Positions 14,543 through 64,000 of a DNA stretch of 64,000 nt are shown here, piece by piece. Source of the stretch: Candidatus Hadarchaeota archaeon (GTDB lineage Archaea; Hadarchaeota; Hadarchaeia; Hadarchaeales; Hadarchaeaceae); NCBI GenBank assembly GCA_964514965.1, contig CAZETV010000001.1, forward strand, positions 889,239 to 953,238. Reading direction: 5' to 3'. Positions within the stretch are counted from its first letter, which is position 1. Each line of letters starts with the position of its first letter. Under the pieces are notes generated by a model that was not told the origin of the DNA, ran no database searches, and saw only the letters and a program-made list of their open reading frames with translations. A program made the translations under genes and the position numbers.

Positions 14543-15633
14543 ATCCGCTTCCTCTTCTCATAAAGTTCATTTTCGATGTCTAAAGGATCAACAATCTTCG
14601 TTAAGCAAGCTTTTCCACATCTTCCACATCCAGTGCAAAAAGACTTCCCCCATTTTTCAAAAAGGTACCAGTCCTTCCGGTTGGTTCTGTGACGCAATCG
14701 AGTACCCCTTTCTTCTCTGAATATCTCTCCTGAGGCCACCCTAGTGAAATCGGTAAGAAGACAACCGTCCCAGAAGCGAGAACGATTCCCCCGCTTCAAG
14801 TTTAACTCGATATAATCTCTTACATCAAAGCAGTAACAGGTGGGGCAGACCATGTTGCAAGACCCGCAGTTGAAACACTTTGCTCCATGCTCATCCCATA
14901 CACGGCTGTCGTAATTTTCTTTCAGTAGCTTGGGTAGGTCTTCAAGTTTGGGCTTAAGCTTTCGCTGCTGTTTATTAAAGAAATTGTCTCTTCTCCTTCG
15001 GATTTTTCCCAATTCCTTGGCATCTGATCGGGTCGCTTTTTTAGCAATCCCAGAAATAAGAGATTCTCCTCTTTTGGAACCTACTTCTACAAAGAAGTTG
15101 TCCCCCATATCGGTTAAGAAAAGGTCAAACCCCTCCCGCGGAAGTACGGACCCCTTGCGGTAGCAGAATGACTCTGGGGAGCAGGGGAGGAGACATTCCG
15201 CTCCGATTATAGTTAGATACCCCCGCTTCTTGAGATAATTTTCATCCAAATTTTTTTCCGAGAAAACTTTATCCAAAAGTGCAGTTCCATTTATGTCGCA
15301 AGGATGGATCCCGAGTAAAATCACCGGTTTTGCATCCATCTTGGCCTCTACCTTGACCTCATCGTCAACTTCGTATTCGGTCAATTCTTCTTCTTGTGGG
15401 AAAAGAAAAGTTTTTGGAGGGATGACTGTTTGAGGACCTTCCCAGAGAATCTCTTTCGTGGACTTTATCGGTTTAAAATTAGCTTGATTTTCCTGCTTCA
15501 CGGGGGCTACTACTTCTTTTCCGTCTCTAATTATTCTATCAATTAACTTTAAAAAATCTTTTTTGGTTATCGAATATTTCCCCATTTTTTCACCATTCTG
15601 GATTTCCAAATTCACTGCTATCCAAGCCATCAC
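14539..15633 (-). CDS. hydB: Hydrogenase beta subunit (iron-sulfur)
   Basis: 364 aa with multiple 4Fe-4S Cys motifs (CFNCGSCNMVCPTCYC, CTGCGRCGKAC). Confidence 0.75.
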   Translation of the reverse strand: MMAWIAVNLEIQNGEKMGKYSITKKDFLKLIDRIIRDGKEVVAPVKQENQANFKPIKSTKEILWEGPQTVIPPKTFLFPQEEELTEYEVDDEVKVEAKMDAKPVILLGIHPCDINGTALLDKVFSEKNLDENYLKKRGYLTIIGAECLLPCSPESFCYRKGSVLPREGFDLFLTDMGDNFFVEVGSKRGESLISGIAKKATRSDAKELGKIRRRRDNFFNKQQRKLKPKLEDLPKLLKENYDSRVWDEHGAKCFNCGSCNMVCPTCYCFDVRDYIELNLKRGNRSRFWDGCLLTDFTRVASGEIFREERGTRLRHRTNRKDWYLFEKWGKSFCTGCGRCGKACLTKIVDPLDIENELYEKRKRI

Positions 15634-15657
15634 CTTTATCAGGCTTATTTAATTAAT

Positions 15658-15672
15658 TATCGTATCGATAAT
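15658..15672. promoter_or_regulatory. Inverted repeat TTATCG-N3-CGATAA upstream of the hydrogenase operon
   Basis: Perfect 6-bp half-sites separated by 3 nt, about 25-40 bp upstream of the hydB start in an AT-rich intergenic region; a candidate operator or promoter element. Confidence 0.2.
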
Positions 15673-15847
15673 TTCTTGTTGAATCGCAATTCATGTTTAA
15701 TATTCCCCCGATAGAGAAATTTTTGTCCATGTTAAACCTTTTCGTTCTTTAATTAAGCAGCTCCAGCATTTGAAGTGCAAGTTAGTTTGTAATAGGCGTC
15801 GCGAAAGGAGTTGCCTTTCTTTTTCGAATTTAAGAGTGCAGATAGAA

Positions 15848-16114
15848 TTATCCCATCTTGTAGACGAGATCACCTTCACGCACGCGCTCTTGGACTCTCA
15901 ACCCAATTGATTGCCCCGCGCCAGCGCTCTGCACTTTTTCGTGCTCAATCTGTATTGAATCCACCGTCTGTTGGATATTGGTCGTCGCGCCTTCAATCGA
16001 TATTTTATCGCCTACTTTGACCTCGTCACTTAGGTCCACGACTCCAACCCCTATCTTTGTAAAGTAGTGGGATATTTTACCCACGAGTTTCTTCTCAACG
16101 GGTGCTTCTTCCAT
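15848..16114 (-). CDS. Hypothetical small protein (88 aa)
   Basis: ORF between the cbiO end and the hydrogenase operon; no diagnostic motif recognised. Confidence 0.35.
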   Translation of the reverse strand: MEEAPVEKKLVGKISHYFTKIGVGVVDLSDEVKVGDKISIEGATTNIQQTVDSIQIEHEKVQSAGAGQSIGLRVQERVREGDLVYKMG

Positions 16115-16202
16115 TCAATTCACCAGATTAAGATAAGTTGACCCTAATTTATGCCTTTTCCTCTTCCACCAGTTGACTTTAGTATCGACAATTGAGGGTC
16201 TC

Positions 16203-16877
16203 TCATTTGAAAATCTCACTTTTTTTGCCAATTTCCTTTACGATTTTTCCATCATTGATCAGATAAGTTCGGTTACATATTTTCATTAAATCTAAATCAT
16301 GTCCTGCCACTACCATCGTGTGGTGTTTTTTAAGTTCTTTTAAAAGTTTCATAAACTCTTTTTTTATCCAAGGGTCGAGAGCCAATGTTGGCTCATCAAG
16401 AACCAAAATCTCAGGCTTCATGGAGAGTACGGTTGCTATTGCGACTCTTTTCTTTTCCCCGTAGCTTAAGTGATGCGAGCTTCGGTTTTCTAACCTTTCA
16501 AGACCCACAGCTTTTAGTGCTTTTCTAACTCTCCTTTTTACTTCCCATTCACTGAGCCCCATATTTACTGGCCCAAACGCGACATCTTCGAAAACCGTCG
16601 GCATGAACATTTGGTCATCTGGATTTTGGAACACAAGCCCCACTTTGCTTCTGACTTCCCTTGTTTTTTTGCGTAAATCCATCCCGATAACGCGTACACG
16701 ACCTCTTTGTGGCTGTAGGATGCCGTTTAAGTGAAGAAGAAGAGTAGATTTTCCTGAGCCGTTGGGGCCTATTAAGCATATGCTCTCCTCTCTTTCGATA
16801 TCTAGGTTAATGCCATGTAACGCTTTCGTACCATCAGGATAGGTGTAGTGCAGATTTTTTATTTCAATAGCTTTCAT
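16203..16877 (-). CDS. cbiO: ECF/CbiO-type ABC transporter ATPase (cobalt/nickel)
   Basis: Walker A (GPNGSGKST), ABC signature (LSYGEKKR) and Walker B (LVLDEP). Confidence 0.8.
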   Translation of the reverse strand: MKAIEIKNLHYTYPDGTKALHGINLDIEREESICLIGPNGSGKSTLLLHLNGILQPQRGRVRVIGMDLRKKTREVRSKVGLVFQNPDDQMFMPTVFEDVAFGPVNMGLSEWEVKRRVRKALKAVGLERLENRSSHHLSYGEKKRVAIATVLSMKPEILVLDEPTLALDPWIKKEFMKLLKELKKHHTMVVAGHDLDLMKICNRTYLINDGKIVKEIGKKSEIFK

Positions 16878-17674
16878 ACCACCACTAATATTAGTATTAG
16901 AAGTAAGAAAAAGCTAGAGAAGAAGAAGGTATCCGATCTCTTGAATTCAAGTTTGTGTGTTAGCTTAATTTCCCCATTGAACCCTCTGGATCGCATTGCA
17001 GTATAAATGCGCTCTCCTCTTTCATAGCTTTTTGCGAACAATGTTCCAATCATGTATCCAAAGAGTTTTACATTTTGTAATCTGCTAAGACTAGGTGCCC
17101 TTGCATCGCGTGCCCTGCGCATTCGCTCGAACTCATCTATAGCGATGAAAATAAAGCGGTACATAAAAGAGAGAATCATTACGAAGATTTTTGGCAGTTT
17201 CAGTCTTTGAAATCCGTTTAGGAGTTTCGGAAACGGGGTTGTTGAAGTAAGAGCGATCATGGCAAGCACACAAAGCCACGATTTTACAAGCACGTTGAGA
17301 AAAATCAACAGGGCTGAGTGGGTTATTCTAAAAATGCCAATATTGTATGATCCAGCTGCGTCACCACCGCCTAAGAACGGCAACCCTATAGCAACGAGCA
17401 GCACAAATGGAACTATCACCGAGGATCTCTTCAGGATAAATCTAAGCGGAACTCGTGAGATTAGGATAATCGAGAAGACTAGTGCCCCGTAAAAGGCGAA
17501 TTTCGGGGCCTGAGTTATTGGAGTGAAAATTACGAAGAAAAGGAAGGAAAAAAGCGCGATTATTTTCACTCTTGGGTCTAAAACATGTATTGAACTATGC
17601 AAATTACTATGCTGGTCTAGAAAATGATGCTTCATATGCTGTTTCAGCGTCTCCGTTTTAAGATTGTACCCCAA
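16874..17674 (-). CDS. cbiQ: Cobalt/nickel ECF transporter transmembrane component CbiQ
   Basis: Multi-TM 266 aa protein translationally coupled to cbiO and cbiN. Confidence 0.7.
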   Translation of the reverse strand: MGYNLKTETLKQHMKHHFLDQHSNLHSSIHVLDPRVKIIALFSFLFFVIFTPITQAPKFAFYGALVFSIILISRVPLRFILKRSSVIVPFVLLVAIGLPFLGGGDAAGSYNIGIFRITHSALLIFLNVLVKSWLCVLAMIALTSTTPFPKLLNGFQRLKLPKIFVMILSFMYRFIFIAIDEFERMRRARDARAPSLSRLQNVKLFGYMIGTLFAKSYERGERIYTAMRSRGFNGEIKLTHKLEFKRSDTFFFSSFFLLLILILVVV

Positions 17675-17937
17675 CCCAGAGTTATACCGATAATGATAAA
17701 CACTCCGACTAGACCCGCTAGCGATGTGGCAAGTGCTTTATTTTCAATGCCGGGGATGGCATAGTCAGGCATCGGAGAGTGCATGGCTTCTTGTCCCTCA
17801 GCTTTCTCTGCGAATCCTTGATCCTCTGCAACTCGTTCGAGACCATCTGGCTCGGAGGAGGCGAAAAGCGATAGCACACATGCCATAGAGATCGCGATGA
17901 CAAGTCCGGCGATCCACCATTTTTCTTTGAGTTTCAT
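17644..17937 (-). CDS. cbiN: Cobalt/nickel transport protein CbiN-like small membrane protein
   Basis: 97 aa with two TM helices, located between cbiM and cbiQ. Confidence 0.55.
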   Translation of the reverse strand: MKLKEKWWIAGLVIAISMACVLSLFASSEPDGLERVAEDQGFAEKAEGQEAMHSPMPDYAIPGIENKALATSLAGLVGVFIIIGITLGWGTILKRRR

Positions 17938-17945
17938 TTTTTCAC

Positions 17946-18581
17946 CTAGATTTTTGGTAGCTTCAGCAAGTCTGGCCGCGTCTTTAGGACGAAGCTAATT
18001 ACCGAAATGGTGATGGCGGCCTCGATGATGCCGATTATTACGTGGATTCCTACCATTGCCGGCAGAGCTATCCCAAGAGGCGAAGTTCCTGAAGCTGCTA
18101 ACTCAAATGCGCATGCCGCCGACGCGAGCACCACAGCGATCCAAGCAGCGACGCCAGCTCCAATAATCATGCCTCTGTCCCCTTTCACAGCTTTTTTAAC
18201 ACCCTGGTAGATGAAATAGCCAAGGATGGTGCCAATAAGCCCCATGTTGATGATGTTCGCGCCCATCGTAGTTATCCCTCCATCTTGGAAGAATATTGCT
18301 TGTACACCAAAGATTGACCCCATTACAATCGATCCAGCCAGCGGGCCGACAAAAACAGCGATGAGTACTCCGCCGAGCATATGTCCGCTGGTGCCGCCAG
18401 CTACTGGCACGTTTAACATTTGTGCTGCGAAAATGAATGCTGCTAGCACGCCTAGTAGTGGAACGTGCCTATCTCCAAGTTTTTTATTAGTCCTCCAAAC
18501 TGCGACGACCAGAATCAGCATAGCGACTACCCACAATGGTGCCCATACCGCAACGCTTAGAAATCCATCTGGTATGTGCAT
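17946..18581 (-). CDS. cbiM: Cobalt/nickel ECF transporter substrate-capture component CbiM/NikM
   Basis: Start set to ATG at 18581 giving the N-terminus MHIPDGFLS; the ORF-track start at 18680 would abut the nikR start. Confidence 0.8.
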   Translation of the reverse strand: MHIPDGFLSVAVWAPLWVVAMLILVVAVWRTNKKLGDRHVPLLGVLAAFIFAAQMLNVPVAGGTSGHMLGGVLIAVFVGPLAGSIVMGSIFGVQAIFFQDGGITTMGANIINMGLIGTILGYFIYQGVKKAVKGDRGMIIGAGVAAWIAVVLASAACAFELAASGTSPLGIALPAMVGIHVIIGIIEAAITISVISFVLKTRPDLLKLPKI

Positions 18582-18597
18582 AATGGCCCCATCTGGG

Positions 18598-18627
18598 AGT
18601 AATACTTTTTGGTATAAAAATATTACT
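18598..18627. promoter_or_regulatory. Candidate NikR operator: AGTAATA-N16-TATTACT
   Basis: Perfect 7-bp inverted repeat with 16-bp spacer, in the 97-bp divergent intergenic region between cbiM (start 18581) and nikR (start 18679); the spacer contains a TATA-like GGTATAAAAATA. Confidence 0.45.
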
Positions 18628-18678
18628 GTCATAGATAACTTGAAAAACACTTGGCAACGAAGTTTGCAGGGAGTTGGC

Positions 18679-19083
18679 ATGCCGAAAAAGATAACGCGAG
18701 TGAGCTTGACGTTGCCTCAAGATTTGTTGGATGAGCTCGATTGCTCTCTTAAAGCTCAAGGTTATACAAGTCGTTCGGAGGCGATCCGTGATGCTTTACG
18801 AGATTTTTTGGCGAGCTACAAGTGGCGCAAGGAGCTTAAGGGCGAACGTATCGGGGTCGTAATACTAGTGTACGAGCACGATGTCCGAGGGCTGATTGAC
18901 GCACTCATGGATATCCAGCACGTGAGTTCGAGTATAATAAGCGCAGTCCAGCATTTGCATGTCGACGCCAAAAACTGCTTGGAAACACTGATTGTCAAGG
19001 GCCCCTCAGAGGAGATCCGCAAGCTTGTCGATCGCTTGGGCGCCCTGCGAGGCGTCAAACAGGTCAAGCTGGTGGTTGTTTGA
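18679..19083 (+). CDS. nikR: Nickel-responsive regulator NikR
   Basis: 134 aa; N-terminal ribbon-helix-helix (KITRVSLTLPQDLLDELD...GYTSRSEAIRDALRDFL) plus C-terminal ACT-like metal-binding domain with His/Cys (EHD...HVD..C). Start taken at ATG 18679, not the 285-aa ORF-track extension. Confidence 0.8.
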   Translation: MPKKITRVSLTLPQDLLDELDCSLKAQGYTSRSEAIRDALRDFLASYKWRKELKGERIGVVILVYEHDVRGLIDALMDIQHVSSSIISAVQHLHVDAKNCLETLIVKGPSEEIRKLVDRLGALRGVKQVKLVVV

Positions 19084-53110: not shown

Positions 53111-54676
53111 TTAGAAAAGCTCTTTCTCCTGCAGATAGCTCCTGCCAGTTCTCAGAGCAATCTCGGCTTTCTGGAGTTCGCGCCCCAAGTATGCGGCATG
53201 TTCGATATCACTAATCAATCCTTTTTCTATAATTTCATAGCATATCTCCTCGGCGGTTTTCCCTCTTATCACGATTTTTGGGTCCCTTCCAGCGTACATG
53301 ACGGCGACTATCTCATATTTGTCAACGAAAATTTTGAAGAAACCTGTTTGATCGAGCTTAAACTTTCTCTTTGCCGATGCGTGGATTGCACTTGCTACCT
53401 TCTCGACATTTTTATCGTATAGGTCGAAAACCTTTCTCTTTTCCTTTAGGATTAGCAGGTCCAATCCTAAATCCTTGGGGACGGTGGACCTTATCTTCGA
53501 TATCGTCGTCATCTCCCTCGCCTTTCTGACCTCTGCAACATTTCCCTGCGTTTTATCGCTCGCTTCCACGGTGAGCACGAAACTTGTCCCTAGTTCGCTT
53601 GCGGCTCCAACTAACAAAGCTGTCATACCCACTGAATCTGCATCGTAAAGCTCAACCACGTTTCCTATCCCCATCAAGATCGGAAGTTCGGGATCAAGTC
53701 CCCTCAACTCGTAAAAGGACAACAGGGAGGCAACGAATCCACGGTTAACGGGTTCTAGGATGGGGTCGGCTATCACCCGTTTGTATCCGAGTTTCTCCGA
53801 TTTTTTCACCAGTTTCATCAAATACTCTACCTTTTCTCTTGGTGCACGCGGGTAATAGCCGCGCTTCGTGTTTAATGGAACGAGGACAGCGGGCACTTCA
53901 AGATTTTGAAATTCATTGATGGTGGCGCCGTTTATGCTCAGGATCAAATCAATTTCGCACTCGATGGCCTTTTTGATCTCAGTTTTGTTTAAAGTGTCAA
54001 TGCTTATCGGGACATCGAAATTATCTTTTAGTGTGGACACAAGCCTCGGAACTTCATCGACCATCTCCCTTCCCGCGAGCATTCCGATATCGATGATTTC
54101 AGCTCCGCTTTCGAAGTATCGTTTGGCGACTTCAATGATTTTCTCGTCAGAAAAGAGTGGCGCATCAGCTATTTCTCCGATGACCCTCGGCGGAAAATCT
54201 CTGCCAGCGGGAACCGCCGTCTTGCCCTTCCCAATCAAGAAATTGTGAGGTTCAGAAAGCCTTTTTTTAGCAGCTTCCTCGGCGATTTTAAGTTGTTTTT
54301 TTATAGAGGCTTTAATCTCAGAGTTTAGGAGCTCGCATGCTGGTTTCTCTTTCGAAAGCTCTATTTTATCTAAATTGTCCAGCACAATGGGGATGTCTGC
54401 AGCGTACTTTGGCCCCTTAAAAGTGGGTATCCCAAGTTTATTTTCTATCATCTTCAAGTCAAATCTAACTAGCCCTGGAACGAGGAGCATCGAGAAGTTG
54501 TTCAAGTTGATTTTTTTTAATTCATTTATCAAAAGTTCTGGAGTCATGAATGATGCAACGGAGAGTGGCAGGACTTTTACATCAGAAGGTATAGTGCTTT
54601 CGACGGCATACCTTCGAACTAACTTTTCAGCGAGTTCAGCCGTTACCAGCAGTATTCTCTTGCCCATCGGCACCAC
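53111..54676 (-). CDS. Dihydropteroate-synthase-like protein with C-terminal extension (methanopterin biosynthesis)
   Basis: 521 aa; pterin-binding TIM-barrel segments (EIIDIGMLAG, ISIDT) resembling the DHPS homologues that condense dihydropterin-PP with beta-RFAP in methanogens. Confidence 0.6.
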   Translation of the reverse strand: MVPMGKRILLVTAELAEKLVRRYAVESTIPSDVKVLPLSVASFMTPELLINELKKINLNNFSMLLVPGLVRFDLKMIENKLGIPTFKGPKYAADIPIVLDNLDKIELSKEKPACELLNSEIKASIKKQLKIAEEAAKKRLSEPHNFLIGKGKTAVPAGRDFPPRVIGEIADAPLFSDEKIIEVAKRYFESGAEIIDIGMLAGREMVDEVPRLVSTLKDNFDVPISIDTLNKTEIKKAIECEIDLILSINGATINEFQNLEVPAVLVPLNTKRGYYPRAPREKVEYLMKLVKKSEKLGYKRVIADPILEPVNRGFVASLLSFYELRGLDPELPILMGIGNVVELYDADSVGMTALLVGAASELGTSFVLTVEASDKTQGNVAEVRKAREMTTISKIRSTVPKDLGLDLLILKEKRKVFDLYDKNVEKVASAIHASAKRKFKLDQTGFFKIFVDKYEIVAVMYAGRDPKIVIRGKTAEEICYEIIEKGLISDIEHAAYLGRELQKAEIALRTGRSYLQEKELF

Positions 54677-55414
54677 TTAGAGAACTTCATTTAGAGTTTT
54701 TGGAATTTTTTTCGGACTATCGATTACAACATAGTTTTTATTTTTCTGCATTTTCTTGACATTTTCGATATCAATTTTTCTGAGAGTAACTTTGACTTCT
54801 TGGCCGAAGGTAACCGCGCCATAAGGGCACTTTTTGAGGCAAATGCCGCACCCTTCACACTTGGTGAGGTCTATTTTTGAATGTCCGTCAGAGAGAACTA
54901 TCGCTTCAAATAGGCAAAGGTCGATTATCGAACAAGCTTCGCAATTCAGACAAATTTCTCGGTTTATCAGGTACGGAAGTCTCGTTCTTTTCTTAATCCC
55001 AATTTGATCGCTCGGAACAATTATTATCGGTACTTTTCCCTTCTCGGCCTGTGCTATGGCGTTTGTAACTAAGGTGTCGGTGATTCCAGCAATAGTTTTT
55101 GCAACCGTGTTTGCACTCGCCGGTGAAATGATCAGAGCATCGTAGGTTCCTCTTAATAAACGTCCTGCAAGCGGGAAGTCGGGGCCCTGCTGGACTTCAA
55201 GGATCACTTCTCGGTAATAATTACCCGGGCAAATCTTGCTCAGTTTTTGCCAAAGCCCATAAACGCGAACGACCCTTTCTCCAGCTGAGGAAACGAAGCA
55301 TGATACCACATGCTCTCTCGCTAATTTCTCCATAACGTCGAATGTCTCTTGAAGAAAATGTCCGGCTCCTGTTATGCCCCACCCTATTTTTACCAATTCA
55401 CTACCCCATCTCAT
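54677..55414 (-). CDS. dmrX: Flavoprotein with two 4Fe-4S ferredoxin motifs, DmrX-like dihydromethanopterin reductase
   Basis: N-terminal flavoprotein fold (IGWGITGAGH, IISPASANT) plus C-terminal CLNCEAC...CEGCGICLKKCP motifs. Confidence 0.55.
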   Translation of the reverse strand: MRWGSELVKIGWGITGAGHFLQETFDVMEKLAREHVVSCFVSSAGERVVRVYGLWQKLSKICPGNYYREVILEVQQGPDFPLAGRLLRGTYDALIISPASANTVAKTIAGITDTLVTNAIAQAEKGKVPIIIVPSDQIGIKKRTRLPYLINREICLNCEACSIIDLCLFEAIVLSDGHSKIDLTKCEGCGICLKKCPYGAVTFGQEVKVTLRKIDIENVKKMQKNKNYVVIDSPKKIPKTLNEVL

Positions 55415-56087
55415 TTTTGAAGAGACCCTTAATTTTTATCATCAGGTTTAGCTCCACTGAGTGAGGAGCGATTCGCCGACATTTTTCCAAATATTCACTA
55501 ATCTCAAGGAATTTCTTTTTTGCCACGTCATATTTACCATTTTTTAACGCTTCCTTTACCCGAGTTGCCAGTATTGCGGATTCGGTCACGAAGAACTCGG
55601 ACCTTTTGAACGGATAGATGGACGGAGTAATTAACTCAATATTTTTCACCCTTGCAGTAATGTGGGCCACTTCCGAACTGCCGATCTCATCCGAAATCTT
55701 TGCTCGTTCTACCTTTTCAACCTCAATCTCCACATGGGCATCGCTTTTCGCCAGTTTGGGCGCGTTCACGTTTCTCGATTTTTCGAATTCTATTGCGATT
55801 TTACCGAAGCTGGTGAATTCTTTTAGAGCAAGAGATACCAGGAGTTCCACATCTCTTACGATGTTTATAACCGCGGCCTTCGAATGGAGGAGATTCTGGA
55901 AAGTTCTGGTGTTAGTGAAAATTCTTAGAAACAACTTTGATTGATTTATTGTCTTGATACCAACAACCGATGCGTGCGGTCTTTTATCAGGTGAGAAGGT
56001 AGTCAAAATGATTTCCGCTGGGGATTGCTCAGATAGCCCAGTTTCTGCTAATGAGGACATAACAGGCATCTTCATTTCAACATGCAT
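55401..56087 (-). CDS. DUF447-like protein associated with methanopterin biosynthesis
   Basis: 228 aa protein between dmrX-like and CitG-like genes; the same gene set (DUF447 plus CitG-like) accompanies H4MPT biosynthesis in methylotrophs. Confidence 0.45.
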   Translation of the reverse strand: MHVEMKMPVMSSLAETGLSEQSPAEIILTTFSPDKRPHASVVGIKTINQSKLFLRIFTNTRTFQNLLHSKAAVINIVRDVELLVSLALKEFTSFGKIAIEFEKSRNVNAPKLAKSDAHVEIEVEKVERAKISDEIGSSEVAHITARVKNIELITPSIYPFKRSEFFVTESAILATRVKEALKNGKYDVAKKKFLEISEYLEKCRRIAPHSVELNLMIKIKGLFKNEMG

Positions 56088-56120
56088 ATGTTTTTCTCAC
56101 ACATAAAACTCTCAAAGATT

Positions 56121-57104
56121 TCAAGGTATCAACCCATCGAGGATTGCCAGCATTAGGGAGGATGCGGTGAGGTCAGCCGTTGTTCCTGGATTTATTCTTT
56201 TTTTTCTCAGCTCCTCATCAAATTTTTTGATAAGGGTTCTCCCCGCACTTGTTAACATTCCTCCTTTCTTGATGATCGACCTTGCCTCCCCCGATACGTT
56301 TTCCGAGATTTCTTTGCCGTGTATCCTTTGCACGAAGGTATCGGGATATTTTGAGAGTATCTCGAGAAAGCTCTGGACGGTCGTCGTGTTCATGGTTTTA
56401 GTCTTTTCGTACAATTTTTTCACGAGTGGATAGCCGAATTCAAAAGTTATCTCCATGCCGGTGACCCATTCTCTGGATATGTTATCCCACTTTGAGCTGA
56501 TATTCATTATCTCATAGAGCGAGATATGCTCTTTCTTTATCCTATCCTTTGATGTCTCATTCTTTACATCGAGTTCATCCACTCCCTCAAGGCCTGCCGG
56601 GTCCGCAATCAAGATCGCATCGTAGACATTCAGCGCGTCCTCAGGAGTCGTGGATTTCAAGACATTTGAGAGGTTTGCCCTAAGCTTTTTCATTTCAATT
56701 TTACCTTCCCTGCCCAGCGTTATTCCTGCTGCTGCTGCAAGCGGTGTTAAGAGCAGCACTACGCCCAGATTTGTGTTTCCGTCTCTTTGCCATTTCATCG
56801 TGTTTTCAATTGCACTTTTTATTGCTCTTCCAACTCCGATATGAGTCGTTTTGACCCCTCTCTTTCCAACCCTGAACCCTCTCTTGGCCACATCGAGCAA
56901 AATGGGGCCTATCGCTATGGAGCTTGCTATGAAATGCTCAAACGTCATTTCCTTTATATCCGCAGTTCTGTGAACATTTCCCGGCTTTGGGTACCCGCTA
57001 ACCTCTAGCGCTGACGCGAGTTGTGCGGCTCTTGCTATATCTTCGATATCCATCAAGATTACCTGCGCGGCCTTGCTTATTTTTCGTGTTGTATCATTTA
57101 ACAA
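56121..57104 (-). CDS. Triphosphoribosyl-dephospho-CoA synthase (CitG)-like protein, methanopterin biosynthesis associated
   Basis: CitG-family motif GYPKPGNVHR and 327 aa length. Confidence 0.6.
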   Translation of the reverse strand: MLNDTTRKISKAAQVILMDIEDIARAAQLASALEVSGYPKPGNVHRTADIKEMTFEHFIASSIAIGPILLDVAKRGFRVGKRGVKTTHIGVGRAIKSAIENTMKWQRDGNTNLGVVLLLTPLAAAAGITLGREGKIEMKKLRANLSNVLKSTTPEDALNVYDAILIADPAGLEGVDELDVKNETSKDRIKKEHISLYEIMNISSKWDNISREWVTGMEITFEFGYPLVKKLYEKTKTMNTTTVQSFLEILSKYPDTFVQRIHGKEISENVSGEARSIIKKGGMLTSAGRTLIKKFDEELRKKRINPGTTADLTASSLMLAILDGLIP

Positions 57105-57107
57105 CGT

Positions 57108-57578
57108 TTATGAGAGATGTTTGAGGTTACCAGACTTGGCTCGTTTTTTCTTCACGAGTTTTCCGAGCCCACGTTTTTGGAGCATCGCTTCGATCTCTCG
57201 CTCGGACGGTTGCGGGAGTAAGGTAGGAGCAGGGGTTCGGGACAGTTTCATCCTGAACGCTCCAATTATTTTGCTTGCAGCGAGCGTATACGCAAGCACT
57301 ACCGCGCAGAAGTAGAGCGGTTCAAGCGCGAGCGCCATGGATGTGAAGATTGCGGGTCCGACGATTGCGACCCCGACCGCTAGGGCAATCACGATCGTTT
57401 TGACCTTTCGACGGCGATAAATTACCGTGAGCTTGCCGCCCAGACCTAAGAGCAGCGCCTCCAGCCCAAAAGCCAAAGAACCGAAGAGGAGAATTATATA
57501 GAGGATTTCGATGGTGCTCAAGCAGGTCACCAATCGAGCTAGGTTGACAAACGATTTAAAATGTGAGCGGCGCCGCAT
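57108..57578 (-). CDS. Small membrane protein (start uncertain)
   Basis: Hydrophobic helices (ILYIILLFGSLAFGLEALLLGL, IVIALAVGVAIVGPAIF); longest ORF overlaps the nth start, so the true start is probably internal (TTG at 57521 or ATG at 57338). Confidence 0.35.
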   Translation of the reverse strand: MRRRSHFKSFVNLARLVTCLSTIEILYIILLFGSLAFGLEALLLGLGGKLTVIYRRRKVKTIVIALAVGVAIVGPAIFTSMALALEPLYFCAVVLAYTLAASKIIGAFRMKLSRTPAPTLLPQPSEREIEAMLQKRGLGKLVKKKRAKSGNLKHLS

Positions 57579-58227
57579 GGTGGCAATTTTGGGACGTTTG
57601 GGTGCTGAGTTCGAGCTCTGGCGCCGTTACACTAATGACCCGTTTCTCCTATTGGTTGGGACGGTGCTCTCGCAGAACACCAACTGGCGCAACACCCGTG
57701 CAGCCTATAACCGGCTCATCGCTAAGTTTCGAACACCCGAACAGCTCGCGAGGGCGAGAATAAGGGATATTCAACAGTTAATCAAACCTGCTGGCCTGTA
57801 CAGGATGAAATCTAAACACCTGAAGGAGCTAGCGCGCATAGTGCTCGAGCGATATCACGGGGACCTAAGCACTTTGCTCCGAAAGCCGCCCGAAAAGGCG
57901 CGCCAAGAGTTGCTCTCTTTGCCCGGAATCGGCTACAAGACCGCTGATGTGCTGCTGGTCTTCGGGGCAGGGCGTGACGTGCTGCCGGTTGACACCCACA
58001 TTTTCAGGATCTCAAAACGTCTTGGGTTTGCTTCACCTAAGGCCAACTACGAAAAAGTAAGACTCAAACTTGAGGAACTCACACCTAGCGGCCGTCGCGG
58101 CGAGGCGCATGTGCTGTTGATTCAACACGGTCGGCGTTACTGTCTCGCTCGCAACCCGCTTTGCGATGAATGCCCGATCAAAGACCTCTGCCCAATTGGA
58201 ATTAGTCGTGTAAAGCACGCGCCATAG
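57511..58227 (+). CDS. nth: Endonuclease III (DNA glycosylase/AP lyase)
   Basis: HhH-GPD fold (LPGIGYKTADVLL) and C-terminal 4Fe-4S motif (CLARNPLCDECPIKDLC). Confidence 0.8.
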   Translation: MVLKQVTNRARLTNDLKCERRRMVAILGRLGAEFELWRRYTNDPFLLLVGTVLSQNTNWRNTRAAYNRLIAKFRTPEQLARARIRDIQQLIKPAGLYRMKSKHLKELARIVLERYHGDLSTLLRKPPEKARQELLSLPGIGYKTADVLLVFGAGRDVLPVDTHIFRISKRLGFASPKANYEKVRLKLEELTPSGRRGEAHVLLIQHGRRYCLARNPLCDECPIKDLCPIGISRVKHAP

Positions 58228-58292
58228 CGGAGTTGACGACCACGAGCTTGTCACGCTTTGTATCGAAAAAATGAACTTGATAAATTAACTGT

Positions 58293-58646
58293 TCATCTTT
58301 CTTCAGATTCGATTACATAGTATCTATCTAGCAACTCACAGACGGCTTTAGAAAGAGCATGATAGCACATGTCGGCATCAACTTTTTCTGTGGAGATGCT
58401 AAGAACGTAGTCTCTACAGGTGCAGAAAGTGCGGAAAACTTCATACTCGTCTGATTTCCCCCGCACGAACCATCGCCTACCCCGCCTTATAACGCAATGG
58501 TGCTTGATGGCCTCTAAAGCACGCTTCCCTCGTCCGCTGTAGGCGTCAATTATCGCTCGCTCAAGTTGCGGAGTCAAAATTTCGCCTCGCTTGAGCTGCT
58601 TGAACAGTTCATTCTTTTTGCGGAGGAAAGTTTCCGAGACCACCAC
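58293..58646 (-). CDS. Hypothetical Cys/His-containing small protein (SWIM-zinc-finger-like)
   Basis: 117 aa with CTCRDY...CYH pattern; no firm family assignment. Confidence 0.35.
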   Translation of the reverse strand: MVVSETFLRKKNELFKQLKRGEILTPQLERAIIDAYSGRGKRALEAIKHHCVIRRGRRWFVRGKSDEYEVFRTFCTCRDYVLSISTEKVDADMCYHALSKAVCELLDRYYVIESEER

Positions 58647-58692
58647 ATCCCTATTTCTAAAGGCACGAGAGAGCTATAAAAAATGGAGGCAC

Positions 58693-59523
58693 ATGCTCGA
58701 GCAAACTTTAAGCCTGTTGCGCAAGCAGGGCATAAGACTCAGTAAGCGTGCTGGGCAGCATCAAGTTATAGATTCAACCATTTTGAAACAGATGGTTGGT
58801 TACGCCGAACTCTCCCGTGATGACATGGTGCTGGAGATAGGTGCCGGGATAGGAAATTTAACGCTTTTACTCGTCGCGAATGCGGGTAGAGTGATAGCGA
58901 TAGAGCGAGATAGAAAGCTCGTGAAAGTTCTGGGGGAACGATTGAGGGGGCACTCAAATTTTGAGTTGTTGTGCGGGGATGCGTTGCACATCGAGCTCCC
59001 CAAGTTTAACAAGGTAGTCGCGAACCTCCCCTATGGCATCTCCTCGGACATCACGTTCAAATTACTCGAGCATGGTTTCGAGTCAGCCGTACTTATGTAC
59101 CAACGGGAGTTCGCCGAGCGGCTCGTGGCAAAGCCGGGGTCCGATGATTACAGCCGCCTGACGGTGAATGCTTATTACCGGGCAAGCGTCGAGTTGTTGG
59201 AGGAAGTGTTACCCGAGGCATTTTTCCCCCAACCGAAGGTCACGTCGGCGATCGTCAGGTTCAGGCCGCGAGAGCCCCCATTCAAAGTTAAAAACGAGCA
59301 AGTTTTTTTTGATGTTGTTCGAGCGCTCTTTCAGCATCGGCGCCAGCGGGTGAGGAACGCAATGTACCATTCGTTCGGGGAAATATTCCAGGGGAGGCGC
59401 CCCCCGAAAGCTGAGCGCAGGGCGTTTATCGATAGGAAACTTACAAAGAAGCTTGCGGAGGCCCGTGTGATGGACCTACCGCCCGAGAAATTTGGGGAAA
59501 TAGCGAATTGTTTGGTTAGCTAA
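58693..59523 (+). CDS. rsmA: 16S rRNA (adenine1518/1519-N6)-dimethyltransferase KsgA/Dim1
   Basis: SAM-binding motif LEIGAGIGNLT and catalytic ANLPYGISS; start set at ATG 58693 (MLEQTLSLL) rather than the longer ORF. Confidence 0.8.
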   Translation: MLEQTLSLLRKQGIRLSKRAGQHQVIDSTILKQMVGYAELSRDDMVLEIGAGIGNLTLLLVANAGRVIAIERDRKLVKVLGERLRGHSNFELLCGDALHIELPKFNKVVANLPYGISSDITFKLLEHGFESAVLMYQREFAERLVAKPGSDDYSRLTVNAYYRASVELLEEVLPEAFFPQPKVTSAIVRFRPREPPFKVKNEQVFFDVVRALFQHRRQRVRNAMYHSFGEIFQGRRPPKAERRAFIDRKLTKKLAEARVMDLPPEKFGEIANCLVS

Positions 59524-59609
59524 TCTTCTTTTTTCCTTGTGTTCGTTAAGAAAATGTAGTGAATAGTGAACGGCGAGGATAGCAGCCGCCTGTTCCATTT
59601 TGTCCGGTC

Positions 59610-61805
59610 TTACTCCATAAAGTCTTCAGGCTTGGGCGGCTCCAGTTTTAATCCTTTGCGTTTTCGCGTGTCCCGAACGACTTGTTCTTGAAGCTCCTTT
59701 GGCAGTTGTTCGAATTTTTCGAATTCTGTTCCCCAGATTGCCCTCCCCTCGGTCTCCGAACGCATCTCTGCCGCGAGTCCGAAGGAATTTGCTACTGGCA
59801 GCGAAGCTTTGATGATCGCGATGTCTTCTTCTGACTCCATGGTGGTGATTCGGCCCCGGCGCCCTTGGATGACCTTGGTGGCGCCACCCATGAACTCCTG
59901 CGGCACCCGTACCTCGAGTTTGAGCAAGGGTTCGAGCACCACTGGATTGGCGAGAAGGACCCCAGCCTGAATTGGGCGCCTGACCGCCGGGATGATCTGC
60001 GCTGGCCCGCGGTGCACCGAGTCTTCGTGCAACGATGCGTCGGTGATGAGTAACTTGAGCCTGCGTATGGGCTCACGCATCAGCGGTCCCTCTTCGACTA
60101 CCTCTTTGAAAGCCTCGATAGCATAGTCTTCGACTTCGCGCATGTACTGCACGCCTTTTGTAGCATCAACGAAAATGTTTGAACCGATTATCGAGAGTAC
60201 ATTCCGAGCGGTGTGGGTCTCCCAGCCCAGCTCCCGGAGCACGTTTGCGCGCTCCTTTTTGTCTTGTTTTTCAGCAACTTTGCCCTCCTCGATTGCTTTT
60301 ATAACCTCCGGCTTGAGGGGTTCGGCTGTAATAAAAAAGCGATTGTGTTTGTTTGGGGACTTTCCCTCGACATGTTCGGCCTTACCAAGAATCGTCTCGC
60401 GATAGACGACTATGGGTTCAGATGATTTCACTTCCAGTCCGGCTTCCTTAAGTTTGTATTCGACTATCTCGAGATGAACTTCACCCATCCCCGAAACTAG
60501 GTACTCCCCAGTCTCCTCGTTGATTTTTATCTTTATGTTTGGGTCCTCGCGGGAAATTTTCTTGAGTTCGTTGATGAGCTTTGGCAGATCTTGGAAGTTC
60601 TTCGGCTCGACAGCAACGGTAACTACAGGTTCACTGATGTAGCGGAGCTCCTCGAAGCCCTTACCCTCCGCCCCAACTTCTACTAGCGTCTCTCCCACGT
60701 AGGCCTCTTTCATCCCGATGAGCGCGGCGATGTTGCCAGCGGGCACCTTGTCGACCATCTCGCGCTTAGGCCCTATGTAAATACCGACCTGCTGGATGCG
60801 CGCGTCCTGCCCAGCACTCACCAGTTTGACTGTTTTGCCCTTTTCAAGTGTGCCGGAGAAGACTCGGCCCGTCGAGATGACTCCCGCCTGCTCGTCGACG
60901 ATGACATCGGTGACTATCATGCAAATTTTGCCCTCAGGATTGCAGGAGAACATGTCCTTACCGAGTTCACTCTCCACGTCTCCCTTCCATATAATTGGGA
61001 TTCGGTTCGCCTGTGCCTGTTTTGGGTTGGGAAGGTGGCGAATAACCATATCGAGCACGACCTCGTAAAGTGGGCTTTTCTTCGCCAGCTCCGCTATGTT
61101 GTTCGTCTGGTAAGCGTTGATGATGTCCTTGAAGCTGATGTTTCTGGCCTTCATCTGGGGAATCGAGAGGGCCCACTTCTCTTTCGCCGACCCAAAGGCG
61201 ACTGAACCCTTCTCAACACTTACCCGCCATTTTTCGGCGATGTCAGGAGAAGCGTACCTCCCGATTAGCTGGTTGAACCTAGTTATGAGTTTGACGAACC
61301 GTGCTTGCATCCCATCGGGGGTTAGTTTGAGCTCGTCAATGAGGCGATCCACCTTGTTGATGAATAGTATGGGTCTCGCTCGCTCGCGCAGCGCTTGGCG
61401 GAGCACGGTTTCGGTCTGTGGCATGACGCCCTCGACTGCATCCACAACTACAATCACACCATCGATTGCGCGCAGGGCTCGCGTGACATCACCGCTGAAG
61501 TCGACATGACCCGGGGTGTCAAGCAAGTTGATGAGGTGCTCCTTCCCCCCGAAAGCATGCGCCAGACTCACTGCCGCAGTCTGCACGGTTATCCCGCGCT
61601 GCTGTTCGATTTCAAGATAATCTGTGAAAAGTTGCTCACCCGCCAGCTCGAAACTTATGATTCCCGAAGCGGCGACTAAGCTGTCTGTGAGCGTCGTCTT
61701 GCCGTGATCGACGTGGGCAACTATACCTATGTTTCGGACATGTTCTGGCGTCCACATTATCTTGGCCACGTCGCCTAAGTGTTTGTAACGTCGCATATCC
61801 ACCAC
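59610..61805 (-). CDS. fusA: Translation elongation factor 2 (aEF-2)
   Basis: 731 aa; GTPase motifs AHVDHGKTT, DTPGHVDF, NKVD, and diphthamide-region GRRG...H context (RGPAQIIPAVRR). Confidence 0.9.
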   Translation of the reverse strand: MVDMRRYKHLGDVAKIMWTPEHVRNIGIVAHVDHGKTTLTDSLVAASGIISFELAGEQLFTDYLEIEQQRGITVQTAAVSLAHAFGGKEHLINLLDTPGHVDFSGDVTRALRAIDGVIVVVDAVEGVMPQTETVLRQALRERARPILFINKVDRLIDELKLTPDGMQARFVKLITRFNQLIGRYASPDIAEKWRVSVEKGSVAFGSAKEKWALSIPQMKARNISFKDIINAYQTNNIAELAKKSPLYEVVLDMVIRHLPNPKQAQANRIPIIWKGDVESELGKDMFSCNPEGKICMIVTDVIVDEQAGVISTGRVFSGTLEKGKTVKLVSAGQDARIQQVGIYIGPKREMVDKVPAGNIAALIGMKEAYVGETLVEVGAEGKGFEELRYISEPVVTVAVEPKNFQDLPKLINELKKISREDPNIKIKINEETGEYLVSGMGEVHLEIVEYKLKEAGLEVKSSEPIVVYRETILGKAEHVEGKSPNKHNRFFITAEPLKPEVIKAIEEGKVAEKQDKKERANVLRELGWETHTARNVLSIIGSNIFVDATKGVQYMREVEDYAIEAFKEVVEEGPLMREPIRRLKLLITDASLHEDSVHRGPAQIIPAVRRPIQAGVLLANPVVLEPLLKLEVRVPQEFMGGATKVIQGRRGRITTMESEEDIAIIKASLPVANSFGLAAEMRSETEGRAIWGTEFEKFEQLPKELQEQVVRDTRKRKGLKLEPPKPEDFME

Positions 61806-61845
61806 GTTAGAAAATATCTATATGTCTCATCGTTTAAAAGTAGAG

Positions 61846-63036
61846 CTAACGTAAAGGTAGGAAATCAGATTCAAGTTCATCCTTATTTTTCTCGGGTGGT
61901 GAGGGAAATTCCGTTGGTAACTCCTCGACGCGCTGTCCTATCCCAATCGTATTTCCTATACCGGCGACAATAACCACGTCACCCGGTTTAGTCCGCTCCC
62001 GCACCGCTCGCTTGATTCGTTCGACAGCTACATCGACAGCGCGTACGAGACGTTTGTTGAGGGGTTTTATAGCTTCCTTGAATGACTCCTTGATTATGAT
62101 CGCATCGAGCGGCACCTTGCGCTTTACCGATATTTCCTCGATCTTGTATTTCTCCGTGGGGGGTCCACCTATCGCAGCCCCGACGCCCTCGACCACCTGT
62201 CCGCTCACGTCTCCCTCAAGCTTCAGGGCGGCATCTATCATGATGATTCTGTTCACCTTGCGTTGTGCTACCAAGTGCTTGATTAATTCGCCGGGTTTGC
62301 CGACCCGCCCCCCAGGCCCTTTTGCCTTGACTACAAGCAGTTTTCGCCCCTCGAACTTTGTCTCAGCGTAGACGGTATCTTCGATGGGTTCCCGGCAGGA
62401 GGCCTTCCCGATCAACTGCGTCGCTGTCATTGCCCCAACTCCGTCACCTATCGGTTTTCCGGCAACGAAGGTTTTCGTCGCATCCACGAACGCTTTCGCA
62501 TACTCTTTCAGGAAGGGTAGTTGCATCTGGAGGATCATGACGAGTTGATAACTCTTCGTCTTCTCGGCCAGCAACGTGAAGTGGCGCACCAAGCGATAGA
62601 GGCTGTAGCTCGCCATCGTTCCCTCGATAGTCATCTCCAAATTGGCGGCAGCTTCGGATTCGGCGTTTGGAGCCAAGCGTGTGACGATGTCCTCGAACCT
62701 TTTCTTCCGCACATCCAACACATGTTCAAGTCTGCTAAGCACTCCCGCTGGGTCATCGCTAACTGGCGAAATTGCGAAGAATTCGAGAAAATTGTTGAGC
62801 TCCTGCTCGACATCACGTTTTGGTTTGCCGTGTTTTGTTATCTCCCGGAGCGCGACTCTTTTGCTCTCTTTCGCCCAGCCCTCGAGCTCGTGGACCGACT
62901 TGCGCAGCTGTCCCATCCCCATGCGGGCTTGTAGCCCTATCATGCGGGGCGTGATGAATATGGAGATAGCGAAGAAGACAAAGGCGAAGAGTATCCACGT
63001 AAATATGTCTATGTCGAACGGCATAGCAATCCCCAA
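61846..63036 (-). CDS. Conserved archaeal membrane-anchored protein (DUF1512-like)
   Basis: N-terminal TM helix (IFTWILFAFVFFAISIFI) followed by a soluble domain; 396 aa. Confidence 0.45.
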   Translation of the reverse strand: MGIAMPFDIDIFTWILFAFVFFAISIFITPRMIGLQARMGMGQLRKSVHELEGWAKESKRVALREITKHGKPKRDVEQELNNFLEFFAISPVSDDPAGVLSRLEHVLDVRKKRFEDIVTRLAPNAESEAAANLEMTIEGTMASYSLYRLVRHFTLLAEKTKSYQLVMILQMQLPFLKEYAKAFVDATKTFVAGKPIGDGVGAMTATQLIGKASCREPIEDTVYAETKFEGRKLLVVKAKGPGGRVGKPGELIKHLVAQRKVNRIIMIDAALKLEGDVSGQVVEGVGAAIGGPPTEKYKIEEISVKRKVPLDAIIIKESFKEAIKPLNKRLVRAVDVAVERIKRAVRERTKPGDVVIVAGIGNTIGIGQRVEELPTEFPSPPEKNKDELESDFLPLR

Positions 63037-63111
63037 TCTTGATTGTTCTCTTTTTTCATATAAGTTTGCCGTCGAAAAATTAAAGCCATTCGGTAGTGAA
63101 GTTTGTTAGCT

Positions 63112-63218
63112 GCGGGGGTAGCCAAGTCAGGTCAAAGGTCTAACGACCGGCTGAAGGCGTACGGTTCAGGGCCGTATCCCGTAGGGGTTCGGGGGTTCGA
63201 ATCCCCTCCCCCGCACCA
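63112..63218 (+). tRNA. tRNA-Leu (anticodon CAG) with a 19-nt insertion between the D-arm and the anticodon stem (probable non-canonical intron); CCA encoded
   Basis: Acceptor stem GCGGGGG/CCCCCGC, discriminator A and CCA; D-arm GCC-AAGTCAGGTCAAA-GGT; perfect 5-bp anticodon stem TACGG/CCGTA (63160..63164 with 63172..63176) enclosing loop TTCAGGG (anticodon CAG at 63167..63169); long variable arm CCCGTAGGGGTTC; T-arm GGGGG-TTCGAAT-CCCCT. Nineteen extra nt (about 63140..63158) lie between the D-stem and the anticodon stem. Confidence 0.7.
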
Positions 63219-63307
63219 AATGCGCAATGAGTAAGAAGGTCTATGGAGGTATTTGCGGGCTTTATAGACAAAAATAAGGCAGGAAAACAGGAATTTACAG
63301 TTGCTGC

Positions 63308-63448
63308 CTATTTTCCGAGGAAATTTCGTATTTGCTCTCTCAACCATTCAGCCTTTGAATTATAACCAGATGCCTTCAGTTTTGCTTCAAAAGCTTCAAG
63401 AATCTCCTTTTCAATTTGGGCTTTGATTTCAATAATATCCTGCATCAT
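63308..63448 (-). CDS. Putative ribbon-helix-helix (CopG/antitoxin-like) mini-protein, 46 aa
   Basis: Translated by hand: MMQDIIEIKAQIEKEILEAFEAKLKASGYNSKAEWLREQIRNFLGK; the GYNSKAEWLREQIRNFL segment resembles the RHH helix-2 of NikR and CopG (compare GYTSRSEAIRDALRDFL in the nikR product here). Below the ORF-track length cutoff. Confidence 0.3.
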   Translation of the reverse strand: MMQDIIEIKAQIEKEILEAFEAKLKASGYNSKAEWLREQIRNFLGK

Positions 63449-63501
63449 GATCACTAACGAACAATAAGTTTATAAATATAAGAATATTCTAATATGTTAA
63501 T

Positions 63502-63807
63502 ATGAAAGAGATATATAAAATCCATGCTGAGATGTGTAAAGTTTTTTCAAATCCAACTAGATTGGAAATTCTTAATCTATTAAGAGACAATGAACTGACT
63601 GTTTCTGAATTGACTAATAAGTCAGAATTTACTCAAGTTAACATTTCTCAGCATTTGTCAATAATGAAAAATAAAGGAATAGTCTCATCAAGACGAAAAG
63701 GGAAAAACGTTTACTACAAACTTACTAATCCCAAGATAATCAAAGCATTTGATATAATTAAAGAAGTGTTGGCTGAAAGGTTGAAGAAGAATGGAACGCT
63801 TGTTTAA
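63502..63807 (+). CDS. arsR: ArsR/SmtB family transcriptional regulator
   Basis: 101 aa winged-helix regulator (FSNPTRLEILNLLRDNELTVSELTNKSEFTQVNISQHLSIMKNKGIV). Confidence 0.75.
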   Translation: MKEIYKIHAEMCKVFSNPTRLEILNLLRDNELTVSELTNKSEFTQVNISQHLSIMKNKGIVSSRRKGKNVYYKLTNPKIIKAFDIIKEVLAERLKKNGTLV

Positions 63808-63825
63808 GTGCTATGAGGTGGAAAA

Positions 63826-64000
63826 ATGAGAAAAACTTTCACAATTTTGATTTTTAGTATGTTGTTGTTAAGTGTAAGTCTAGTGTCTGCACATGAATAC
63901 AATTTTAATGAGACAAAGCAACTTATAGATTCAGGAATAAATTGCGATAAACTCACAGACGAGCAGCTTGAAGCCATTGGAGATTATTATATGGAACAAA
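63826..64000 (+). CDS. Secreted or membrane-anchored hypothetical protein (5' part; continues beyond window)
   Basis: ATG preceded by GAGGTG ribosome-binding site; N-terminal signal peptide MRKTFTILIFSMLLLSVSLVSA. Confidence 0.4.
   Translation, partial: MRKTFTILIFSMLLLSVSLVSAHEYNFNETKQLIDSGINCDKLTDEQLEAIGDYYMEQ

Follow-up and report, generated by a model that had tools for sequence, protein, structure and literature searches.

A low-GC gene islet, probably acquired horizontally, immediately 3' of the tRNA-Leu(CAG) gene of a Hadesarchaeon

Genomic islands associated with tRNA genes (tDNA islands of the Islander type) are formed by tyrosine integrases that insert at the 3' end of a tRNA gene (PMC4383910), and the archaeal cases have been reviewed (PMC8371274). 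Two further systems invite comparison: the SSV-type ("suicidal") archaeal integrases, which split their own gene when integrating into tRNA genes (PMC7253208), and the cis-mobilizable elements (CIMEs) of Firmicutes, which are non-autonomous, flanked by attachment (att) sites and mobilised in trans (PMC6323972, PMC5704250). Here we describe an AT-rich block of genes located immediately 3' of a tRNA-Leu(CAG) gene, at the end of a 64,000-nucleotide stretch of DNA from Candidatus Hadarchaeota archaeon (contig CAZETV010000001.1, positions 889,239 to 953,238; the whole stretch is hereafter called the window). The block is an islet of at least 2.5 kb inserted immediately 3' of this tRNA gene, and we estimate a probability of roughly 0.7 that it was truly acquired horizontally and occupies a tRNA-Leu hotspot of Hadesarchaea. 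A small island adjacent to a tRNA gene is in itself routine, and this one is of the ordinary genomic-island kind; on this reading, it documents recent gene flow into a Hadesarchaeon at a tRNA-Leu hotspot used by several species. Hadesarchaea are an uncultured lineage of the deep subsurface and hot springs, and the islet bears on how these small genomes gain stress-response functions and possibly on the physical contact of DPANN archaea with other archaea.

Like the tDNA islands, the block is found directly after an intact tRNA gene, has an atypical composition and is absent from close relatives; moreover, the same tRNA gene is reused within the lineage, and a short stretch from the 3' end of the tRNA recurs distally, a possible counterpart of their attR repeat. 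Unlike them, it shows no integrase in the visible 2.5 kb, its visible size is very small, and its distal repeat is a 9-nt word of the T-loop, present twice inside a conserved motif, instead of a displaced fragment of the tRNA.

The compositional break after the tRNA gene reported in the initial annotation, as well as the comparison of sliding-window G+C and codon usage proposed there, was borne out. Upstream of position 63219 the G+C content is about 0.52, and from there on it is 0.27-0.33; the portion of the block within the window (63219-64000) has a G+C of 0.32 (z = -4.2), below that of every other 782-nt window of the 64-kb stretch (mean 0.476, sd 0.037, minimum 0.373); the genome of this host, a Hadesarchaeon, has a G+C of about 0.48. 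An exact-protein look-up with the ArsR-family protein of the block retrieved the Logan contig SRR14802574_38374 (L001), which is 100% identical to positions 53502-64000 of the window and extends 1710 nt further, to window-equivalent position 65710; it was the sole Logan contig returned by look-ups with ArsR, with the ThrED protein described below and with the DUF1512 protein encoded upstream of the tRNA. Including this extension, the block (63219-65710) has a G+C of 0.347 (z = -4.4), against 0.406 for the lowest other 2.5-kb window. The G+C at third codon positions (GC3) is 0.28-0.37 in its genes, whereas the 52 long open reading frames (ORFs) of the window average 0.52 and none falls below 0.40. 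No return to core composition was seen in the 1.7-kb extension, where G+C stays at 0.30-0.40 through to the contig end. In addition, one NCBI contig of 1,030,738 bp, identified through the protein database, carries DUF1512, ArsR, the Met-rich protein, ThrED, the methyltransferase and DsrE, and the same gene linkage is therefore present in a second assembly, which holds both sides of the junction through DsrE.

The left boundary of the block is given by the tRNA gene, which has two features of relevance:

63112-63218, plus strand: tRNA-Leu(CAG) gene with encoded CCA, the insertion target and left boundary of the block
63135-63153, plus strand: 19-nt insertion in the D-loop of the tRNA-Leu gene (coordinates approximate owing to a repeated AAGG)

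A focused Rfam scan of positions 63000-63400 detected the tRNA at 63112-63215 (RF00005, 43.9 bits against a gathering score of 29), the encoded CCA puts the end of the gene at 63218, and the anticodon loop, read from the sequence as UUCAGGG, identifies it as tRNA-Leu(CAG). When the whole window was scanned, ARAGORN reported no tRNA and Rfam at its gathering score reported nothing, the tRNA-Leu being missed by both because of the 19-nt insertion in its D-loop. In an alignment of 11 tRNA-Leu genes, this insertion is common to the window and to the relatives L002, L007 and L017, with differing sequences, and a small hairpin is kept in these three relatives despite the divergence; six other Hadesarchaeal tRNA-Leu genes and that of the AT-rich contig L043 are without it. 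The insertion is probably a non-canonical intron.

A scan of the genome collection with the DUF1512 protein yielded 31 loci, nearly all from Hadesarchaea/Hadarchaeota metagenome-assembled genomes (MAGs), and the order EF2-DUF1512-tRNA-Leu is kept in about 25 of them. The comparison with relatives suggested by the initial annotation gave a consistent picture, since in none of these approximately 25 Hadesarchaeal relatives is a protein of the block encoded within 10 kb of the same tRNA-Leu. In the closest one (L002, DUF1512 90%), the tRNA-Leu gene is 100% identical to that of the window and the alignment between the two reaches position 63218 and stops there. Beyond the tRNA, L002 has a convergent P-type ATPase with a His-rich N-terminus, 108 nt away, whose annotation as Cu2+-exporting is taken from homologues, and the downstream genes of L002 adjoin tRNA-Leu in no other relative. 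A search for a close ortholog from the window's genome of the Cu-ATPase found in L002 and L007 retrieved none.

The next relative (L007; CAZESD010000007.1, 842-9822) contains, between the same tRNA and the same ATPase, an insertion of 8.86 kb with a G+C of 0.39. The homology blocks on its two sides overlap by an 11-nt repeat of the tRNA end, CCGCACCATAG, and a degenerate tRNA-3'-like stretch is located just inside the far junction; both junctions can be seen, and the insertion at this tRNA end is a bona fide one. Its cargo includes PqqD, a radical-SAM/SPASM maturase, a methyltransferase, an MBL-fold protein and orphans. In other relatives, there are also low-GC genes right after tRNA-Leu, encoding an SBF-family carrier in L018 (G+C 0.43, the genes beyond it having about 0.6), an LMWPc phosphatase in L020, and a radical-SAM protein in both L008 and L009. 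Given these variable low-GC genes, the 3' flank of tRNA-Leu is a hotspot of gene gain or replacement in the lineage. The genes right after tRNA-Leu are metal(loid)-related in L018, L020, L002 and L007, taking the carrier of L018 to be of the ACR3 type, for arsenite, and the phosphatase of L020 to be of the ArsC type, both of which are our own assignments and not the result of a tool; this could be a coincidence, or the locus could be collecting resistance genes.

The features of the block itself, in the window and in its extension, are as follows:

63308-63454, minus strand: ribbon-helix-helix (RHH)-like mini-ORF, 48 aa from GTG or 46 aa from ATG, divergent from ArsR
63469-63493, plus strand: promoter/operator of the ArsR operon, a TATA box TTTATAAATA and then a palindrome AGAATATTCT (TTAGAATATTCTAA in homologous loci)
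63502-63807, plus strand: ArsR/SmtB-family winged-helix repressor, 101 aa (HTH_5, PF01022, E = 7e-15)
63815-63820, plus strand: Shine-Dalgarno-like GAGGTG, read from the sequence, 5 nt ahead of the ATG of the second operon gene
63826 to window-equivalent 64338, plus strand: secreted Met/His/Cys-rich protein, 170 aa, with signal peptide and C-terminal membrane anchor (transmembrane helix); its 5' part, to 64000, is in the window
L001 10834-11244: stand-alone paralogue of the threonyl-tRNA synthetase (ThrRS) editing domain (ThrED), 136 aa (PF08915)
L001 11255-11824: SAM methyltransferase, 189 aa
L001 11832-12155: DsrE-like protein, 107 aa (PF02635, E = 1e-10, 42 bits against 22.7)

All six genes of the visible 2.5 kb were scanned with Pfam, NCBIfam and PHROGs. 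The RHH mini-ORF, the divergent ArsR-family regulator and the signal-peptide protein recognised in the initial annotation are all present, the first with a profile match below threshold (Pfam RHH_1, 18.9 bits against a cut-off of 20.5, E = 0.0015). This mini-ORF also matches the N-terminal part of NikR (E = 3e-4 to 1e-3) and has twelve relatives among 1.84 billion representatives, several of them 46-64 aa long and 62-78% identical. The ArsR protein scores 88 bits with NCBIfam HTH_metalloreg (NF033788), for which the cut-off is 55. Among proteins of solved structure its best relatives are HlyU, Rv0081, NolR and BigR, with SmtB also among the PDB relatives. By inspection, it contains a single Cys (C12), no CXC in helix 3 (alpha3) and no His in the C-terminal helix; the alpha3 CXC of ArsR, the alpha5 Asp/His of SmtB/CzrA and the Cys pair of BigR, which we take to be the inducer-site positions of the family, are all absent. 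The Met-rich protein belongs to a family of more than 1600 members, in which C40, C93, H60, H65, H84 and several Met are invariant, and its AlphaFold2 model (pLDDT 73) consists of a signal/transmembrane helix, a small helical domain, a disordered Met-Gly linker and a transmembrane anchor. ThrED matches PF08915 (E = 1.5e-44 across positions 1-136 of 137) and the ThrRS editing domains in the PDB (E = 2e-15), and stands alone, without synthetase or anticodon-binding domain. The DsrE-like protein has a weak YedF-like match.

Conservation among five loci reaches 35 nt upstream of the ArsR ATG and no further; therefore, the conserved ArsR module starts at its own archaeal promoter, without the RHH gene. 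The TATA box lies about 25-33 nt upstream of the ATG, and since the promoter/operator region ends about 9 nt short of it, the ArsR transcript would be leaderless or nearly so. The layout of the operon is archaeal, with a TATA box, a leaderless first gene and Shine-Dalgarno-like motifs before internal genes, given that the ThrED and DsrE genes are also preceded by similar GGTG/GAGGTG motifs. The initial annotation had correctly placed a GAGGTG ahead of the second gene, whose start is at 63826, but its description as bacterial-style, with the hint of a bacterial origin, is a misnomer, as both the operon layout and the cargo are archaeal.

Similarly to ArsR/SmtB-controlled operons for metal(loid) or sulfur stress, of the HlyU, NolR, BigR and Rv0081 subgroup, the operon starts with a small winged-helix ArsR gene under a palindromic operator that lies over its own promoter, and an extracytoplasmic binding protein, a methyltransferase and DsrE are encoded downstream. 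In contrast to them, the known metal-site residues are absent and the Met/His/Cys-rich partner falls in no described family. To our knowledge, no ThrRS-editing-domain paralogue has been described in an ArsR-type stress operon. We postulate that ArsR would sit on the palindrome and keep the operon repressed until it is released by a thiophilic metal(loid) or by a reactive species of sulfur or selenium, that the Met-rich protein would bind the inducing agent outside the cell, and that the methyltransferase and DsrE would handle it inside; the block may thus hold an autorepressed stress operon that answers such agents. The operon, consisting of ArsR, the Met/His/Cys-rich exported protein, the methyltransferase and DsrE, and joined here by the stand-alone ThrRS-editing paralogue, is widespread and undescribed.

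The modules of the block were found at other loci:

L052 6116-8449; L048 7677-9676; L049 100-1871: recurrent ArsR-Met-rich operon
L001 10834-11824; L034 6996-7991; L040 177-1174; L038 37-2202: ThrED-methyltransferase pair and related loci

ArsR and the Met-rich protein form a fixed pair, after which a small ORF, a methyltransferase, DUF302, thioredoxin or DsrE is often encoded, and the order observed in the recurrent operon is ArsR, exported Met/His/Cys-rich protein, (64-aa ORF), methyltransferase, (DUF302), and DsrE or thioredoxin. The operator TTAGAATATTCTAA and the TATA box are conserved directly ahead of the ArsR start. In L046, L048, L049 and L050 the pair has about 76% DNA identity to the window across about 860 nt, and the ArsR protein is 69-79% identical to those encoded beside Met-rich homologues in L046 and L048-L052. 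At every locus the pair has a G+C of 0.32-0.36, the flanks having 0.33-0.48. In L048, a 491-kb contig with a G+C of 0.48, it forms a low-GC islet of about 2 kb with both flanks visible and no tRNA nearby, and in the AT-rich contigs L051 and L052 the operon matches the composition of the host and sits among housekeeping genes.

ThrED and the methyltransferase of about 190 aa are a second conserved pair (71% DNA identity). Its neighbours in other contigs include tRNA-Cys(GCA), SepSecS/SepCysS-like aminotransferases, ThiF, ThiI and MetX/MetW, which suggests a role in sulfur or Cys-tRNA metabolism instead of Thr editing. Further arrangements, ThrED-DsrE-CysRS and Met-rich-DsrE, were also found; since the modules, which are at home in AT-rich archaea, combine in several ways, the block is a mosaic, and a shared pathway is suggested.

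The cargo is archaeal, considering that PF08915 is archaea-specific, that the closest named homologues are from DPANN and that the promoter is of the archaeal type. The only named close homologues of the Met-rich protein, with 68-73% identity, are from Pacearchaeota and Nanoarchaeota MAGs, and the donor was probably an AT-rich, DPANN-like archaeal lineage. A virus or plasmid origin was considered and rejected: no relatives of the cargo were found in INPHARED, PLSDB or IMG/VR (in IMG/VR, searched with the end motifs and the Met-rich profile), and PHROGs gave no hallmark genes, its matches being weak and generic and restricted to ArsR and the methyltransferase.

The proposal in the initial annotation that the block could be the edge of an integrated element or genomic island is well supported in its second part, by the absence from about 25 relatives, the exact breakpoint, the insertion in L007 and the mobility of the AT-rich module, and not demonstrated in its first, the visible sequence offering no integrase and no clean att repeat. 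The 1.7 kb past the window, where an integrase had been anticipated, holds cargo genes only, and the direct repeat expected of an att site came down to the 9-nt T-loop word, found twice inside the conserved terminal motif.

Several points weigh against a horizontally acquired islet of this kind. No integrase or other recombinase is encoded among the six genes of the visible 2.5 kb, no repeat of the tRNA 3' end of at least 12 nt is present in the window or L001, and the L007 insertion has no integrase by Pfam or PHROGs. The visible sequence ends inside the terminal motif (T, see below), before a far junction or a return to host composition, and both assemblies may derive from the same reads, so that a chimeric join at the tRNA is formally possible. 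Regarding the cargo, the donor assignment rests on just two named matches, the inducer of ArsR is a guess because the known metal-binding residues are absent, and the Met-rich protein has no Pfam family and its model, compared with the PDB by Foldseek, no match with E < 1.

The two ends of the visible block carry conserved sequences:

63194-63202, plus strand: T-loop 9-mer GGTTCGAAT of the tRNA gene, with two more direct copies at window-equivalent 65687-65695 and 65699-65707 (L001 12186-12206)
63220-63293, plus strand: non-coding motif H ("head"), directly after the tRNA CCA, with a hairpin at 63239-63269
L001 12173-12209: terminal motif T, about 37-45 nt, carrying the T-loop word twice

There are three copies of GGTTCGAAT in L001, two of them within its last 25 nt (none of 200 shuffles reached three), and in the 64-kb window the word occurs only in the tRNA. 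When metagenomes were scanned for the last 27 nt of L001, three JGI contigs (L042, L043 and L044) were retrieved, in which T is 97-100% identical despite unrelated surrounding genes. Motif H (75 nt) is 82% identical to L044 114-188 and about 73% identical to L043 over 96 nt, including the last 33 nt of the tRNA; its hairpin is kept with G-U-compatible changes, which is weak evidence, coming from three sequences only. In L043 (G+C 0.37), H comes after a tRNA-Leu(CAG) that is native to this contig and differs strongly from that of the window, and T lies about 50 nt beyond H; in L044 T is followed directly by H, colinear with the tRNA 3' end and H of the window, and L042 has T alone. Neither motif occurs in IMG/VR or PLSDB. 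The end of L001 falls within T, at a position that is A in some copies of the motif and T in others, as might be expected if the sample held several copies of the motif and the assembly graph branched there. The 1.5-kb contig L044 also encodes an IS630-type transposase (389-1428; HTH_33/HTH_32 and DDE_3), split in two overlapping ORFs and possibly frameshifted, located about 200 nt past its T|H junction. The identification of T as a CRISPR repeat, a C/D-box sRNA or a tRNA half was rejected by inspection, given its single copy per locus, unfit box motifs and unpaired T-stems.

Because the visible block has no integrase, integration in trans by a site-specific recombinase, or by an integrase since lost, would be the most likely route for its insertion, and H, beside the tRNA, and T, as a pseudo-T-arm, would be the remains of att arms; the recombinase acting in trans, taken alone, is a tentative proposal with the odds against it. 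The permuted order of the motifs (H...T against T|H) resembles that of attL/attR against attP and would fit a cassette moved in trans, and no circular form, recombinase or autonomous relative of such an H/T cassette was found. In this respect the block is similar to the CIMEs, being cargo only between conserved end motifs that elsewhere occur directly joined (T|H) or nearly empty, with just about 50 nt from H to T. It differs from the CIMEs, which are bacterial and defined by the att sites of the known integrase of an integrative conjugative or mobilizable element (ICE/IME), in having no known partner integrase, excision product or autonomous relative. With the SSV-type integrases it shares the archaeal host and the tRNA gene target. 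Whereas these leave int fragments at both ends, the minus-strand frame from H to the tRNA is not conserved, with a stop in L043, and the space before T is too small for an int(C) fragment; H as a coding sequence or a split SSV-type int was accordingly rejected, also on account of the short ORFs across T.

A bolder reading, which we regard as improbable, is that H and T are the attachment-site arms of an undescribed family of small, integrase-less archaeal cassettes that target the 3' end of tRNA-Leu(CAG) in at least two unrelated lineages, the Hadesarchaeon and the AT-rich archaeon of L043. If so, three states would be represented: a loaded one with 2.4 kb of cargo between H and T, a nearly empty one with about 50 nt between them, and a joined one (T|H); a recombinase acting in trans would move the cassettes, shuttling stress operons of DPANN-like archaea into other archaea. 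For a small cassette, a host-like G+C (about 0.48-0.52) and Hadesarchaeal genes would be expected within tens of bases past T, with ...CCGCACCA or a T/H-type junction.

The AT-rich composition at the last visible base would also be compatible with a larger autonomous element (a provirus, an integrated plasmid or an ICE-like element), of which the block would be the tRNA-proximal edge, with the integrase and the true attR, a long copy of the tRNA 3' end, further downstream and T as an internal feature or the junction between tandem elements. In agreement with this, tRNA 3' ends are classical targets of tyrosine integrases, archaea included (PMC8371274, PMC4383910), and the arrangement of L044, with T directly followed by H, is as expected for a tandem-element junction or an attP. 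The first 2.5 kb consist of cargo only, the cargo has no relatives in the virus and plasmid databases and only weak, generic PHROGs matches, and the L007 island, with both ends visible, shows no integrase, all of which make a larger element unlikely. In most tDNA islands, the integrase lies beside the tRNA-proximal junction, which is not the case here.

It could also be supposed that the locus is simply flexible, with genes entering by illegitimate or homology-facilitated recombination instead of site-specific integration, and that H and T are conserved regulatory or structural sequences. The gene content past tRNA-Leu varies in nearly every relative with no integrase in any of them, the ArsR-Met-rich module is elsewhere inserted away from tRNAs (L048, L052), and the G-U-compatible changes in the H hairpin are those of an RNA element. 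This explanation, which we consider somewhat unlikely, does not sit well with a breakpoint exact to the base at the tRNA end, with the 11-nt direct repeat and pseudo-T-arm at the far junction of L007, or with the presence of the T-loop word twice in T, and the near-identity of T in unrelated contexts and its permutation relative to H are unlike a static regulatory site.

The occurrence of H after the tRNA-Leu(CAG) of L043 itself raises the question of an assembly chimera, in which a Hadesarchaeon and a co-occurring AT-rich archaeon would have been joined via the 3' sequence of their tRNA-Leu(CAG) genes. The junction does fall at a conserved tRNA, both assemblies may stem from the single run SRR14802574, and the exact proteins are found in no other sample. 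Nevertheless, the entire tRNA, down to the final base and with its intron, is of the Hadesarchaeal type, without a hybrid region, and the exact 3' match to an L043-type tRNA is only about 12 nt, too short for a path in a k = 31 graph. In addition, the Logan contig is unbroken across the junction and the 1.03-Mb NCBI contig has both sides through DsrE, a genuine insertion with both junctions visible follows this tRNA in L007, and the AT-rich module is present as an islet in L048. A chimera thus seems very improbable, and a horizontally acquired islet remains the preferred reading.

Elsewhere in the window, positions 10700-17700 and 18226-19083 have a moderately low G+C (0.40-0.45). The stretch at 10.7-17.7 kb was considered as a possible island and rejected, as it contains ordinary hydrogenase, CbiMQO and NikR genes; these names (NiFe-hydrogenase subunits, a CbiMQO-type ECF transporter and a NikR-like regulator) were read from the translations alone. 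Upstream of EF2, the region 53500-59600 (L001 1-6100) encodes DUF6513/Pterin_bind/DUF4346, a flavoprotein with a 4Fe-4S domain, DUF447 and CitG, a gene set that, in our view, presumably resembles one for tetrahydromethanopterin biosynthesis.

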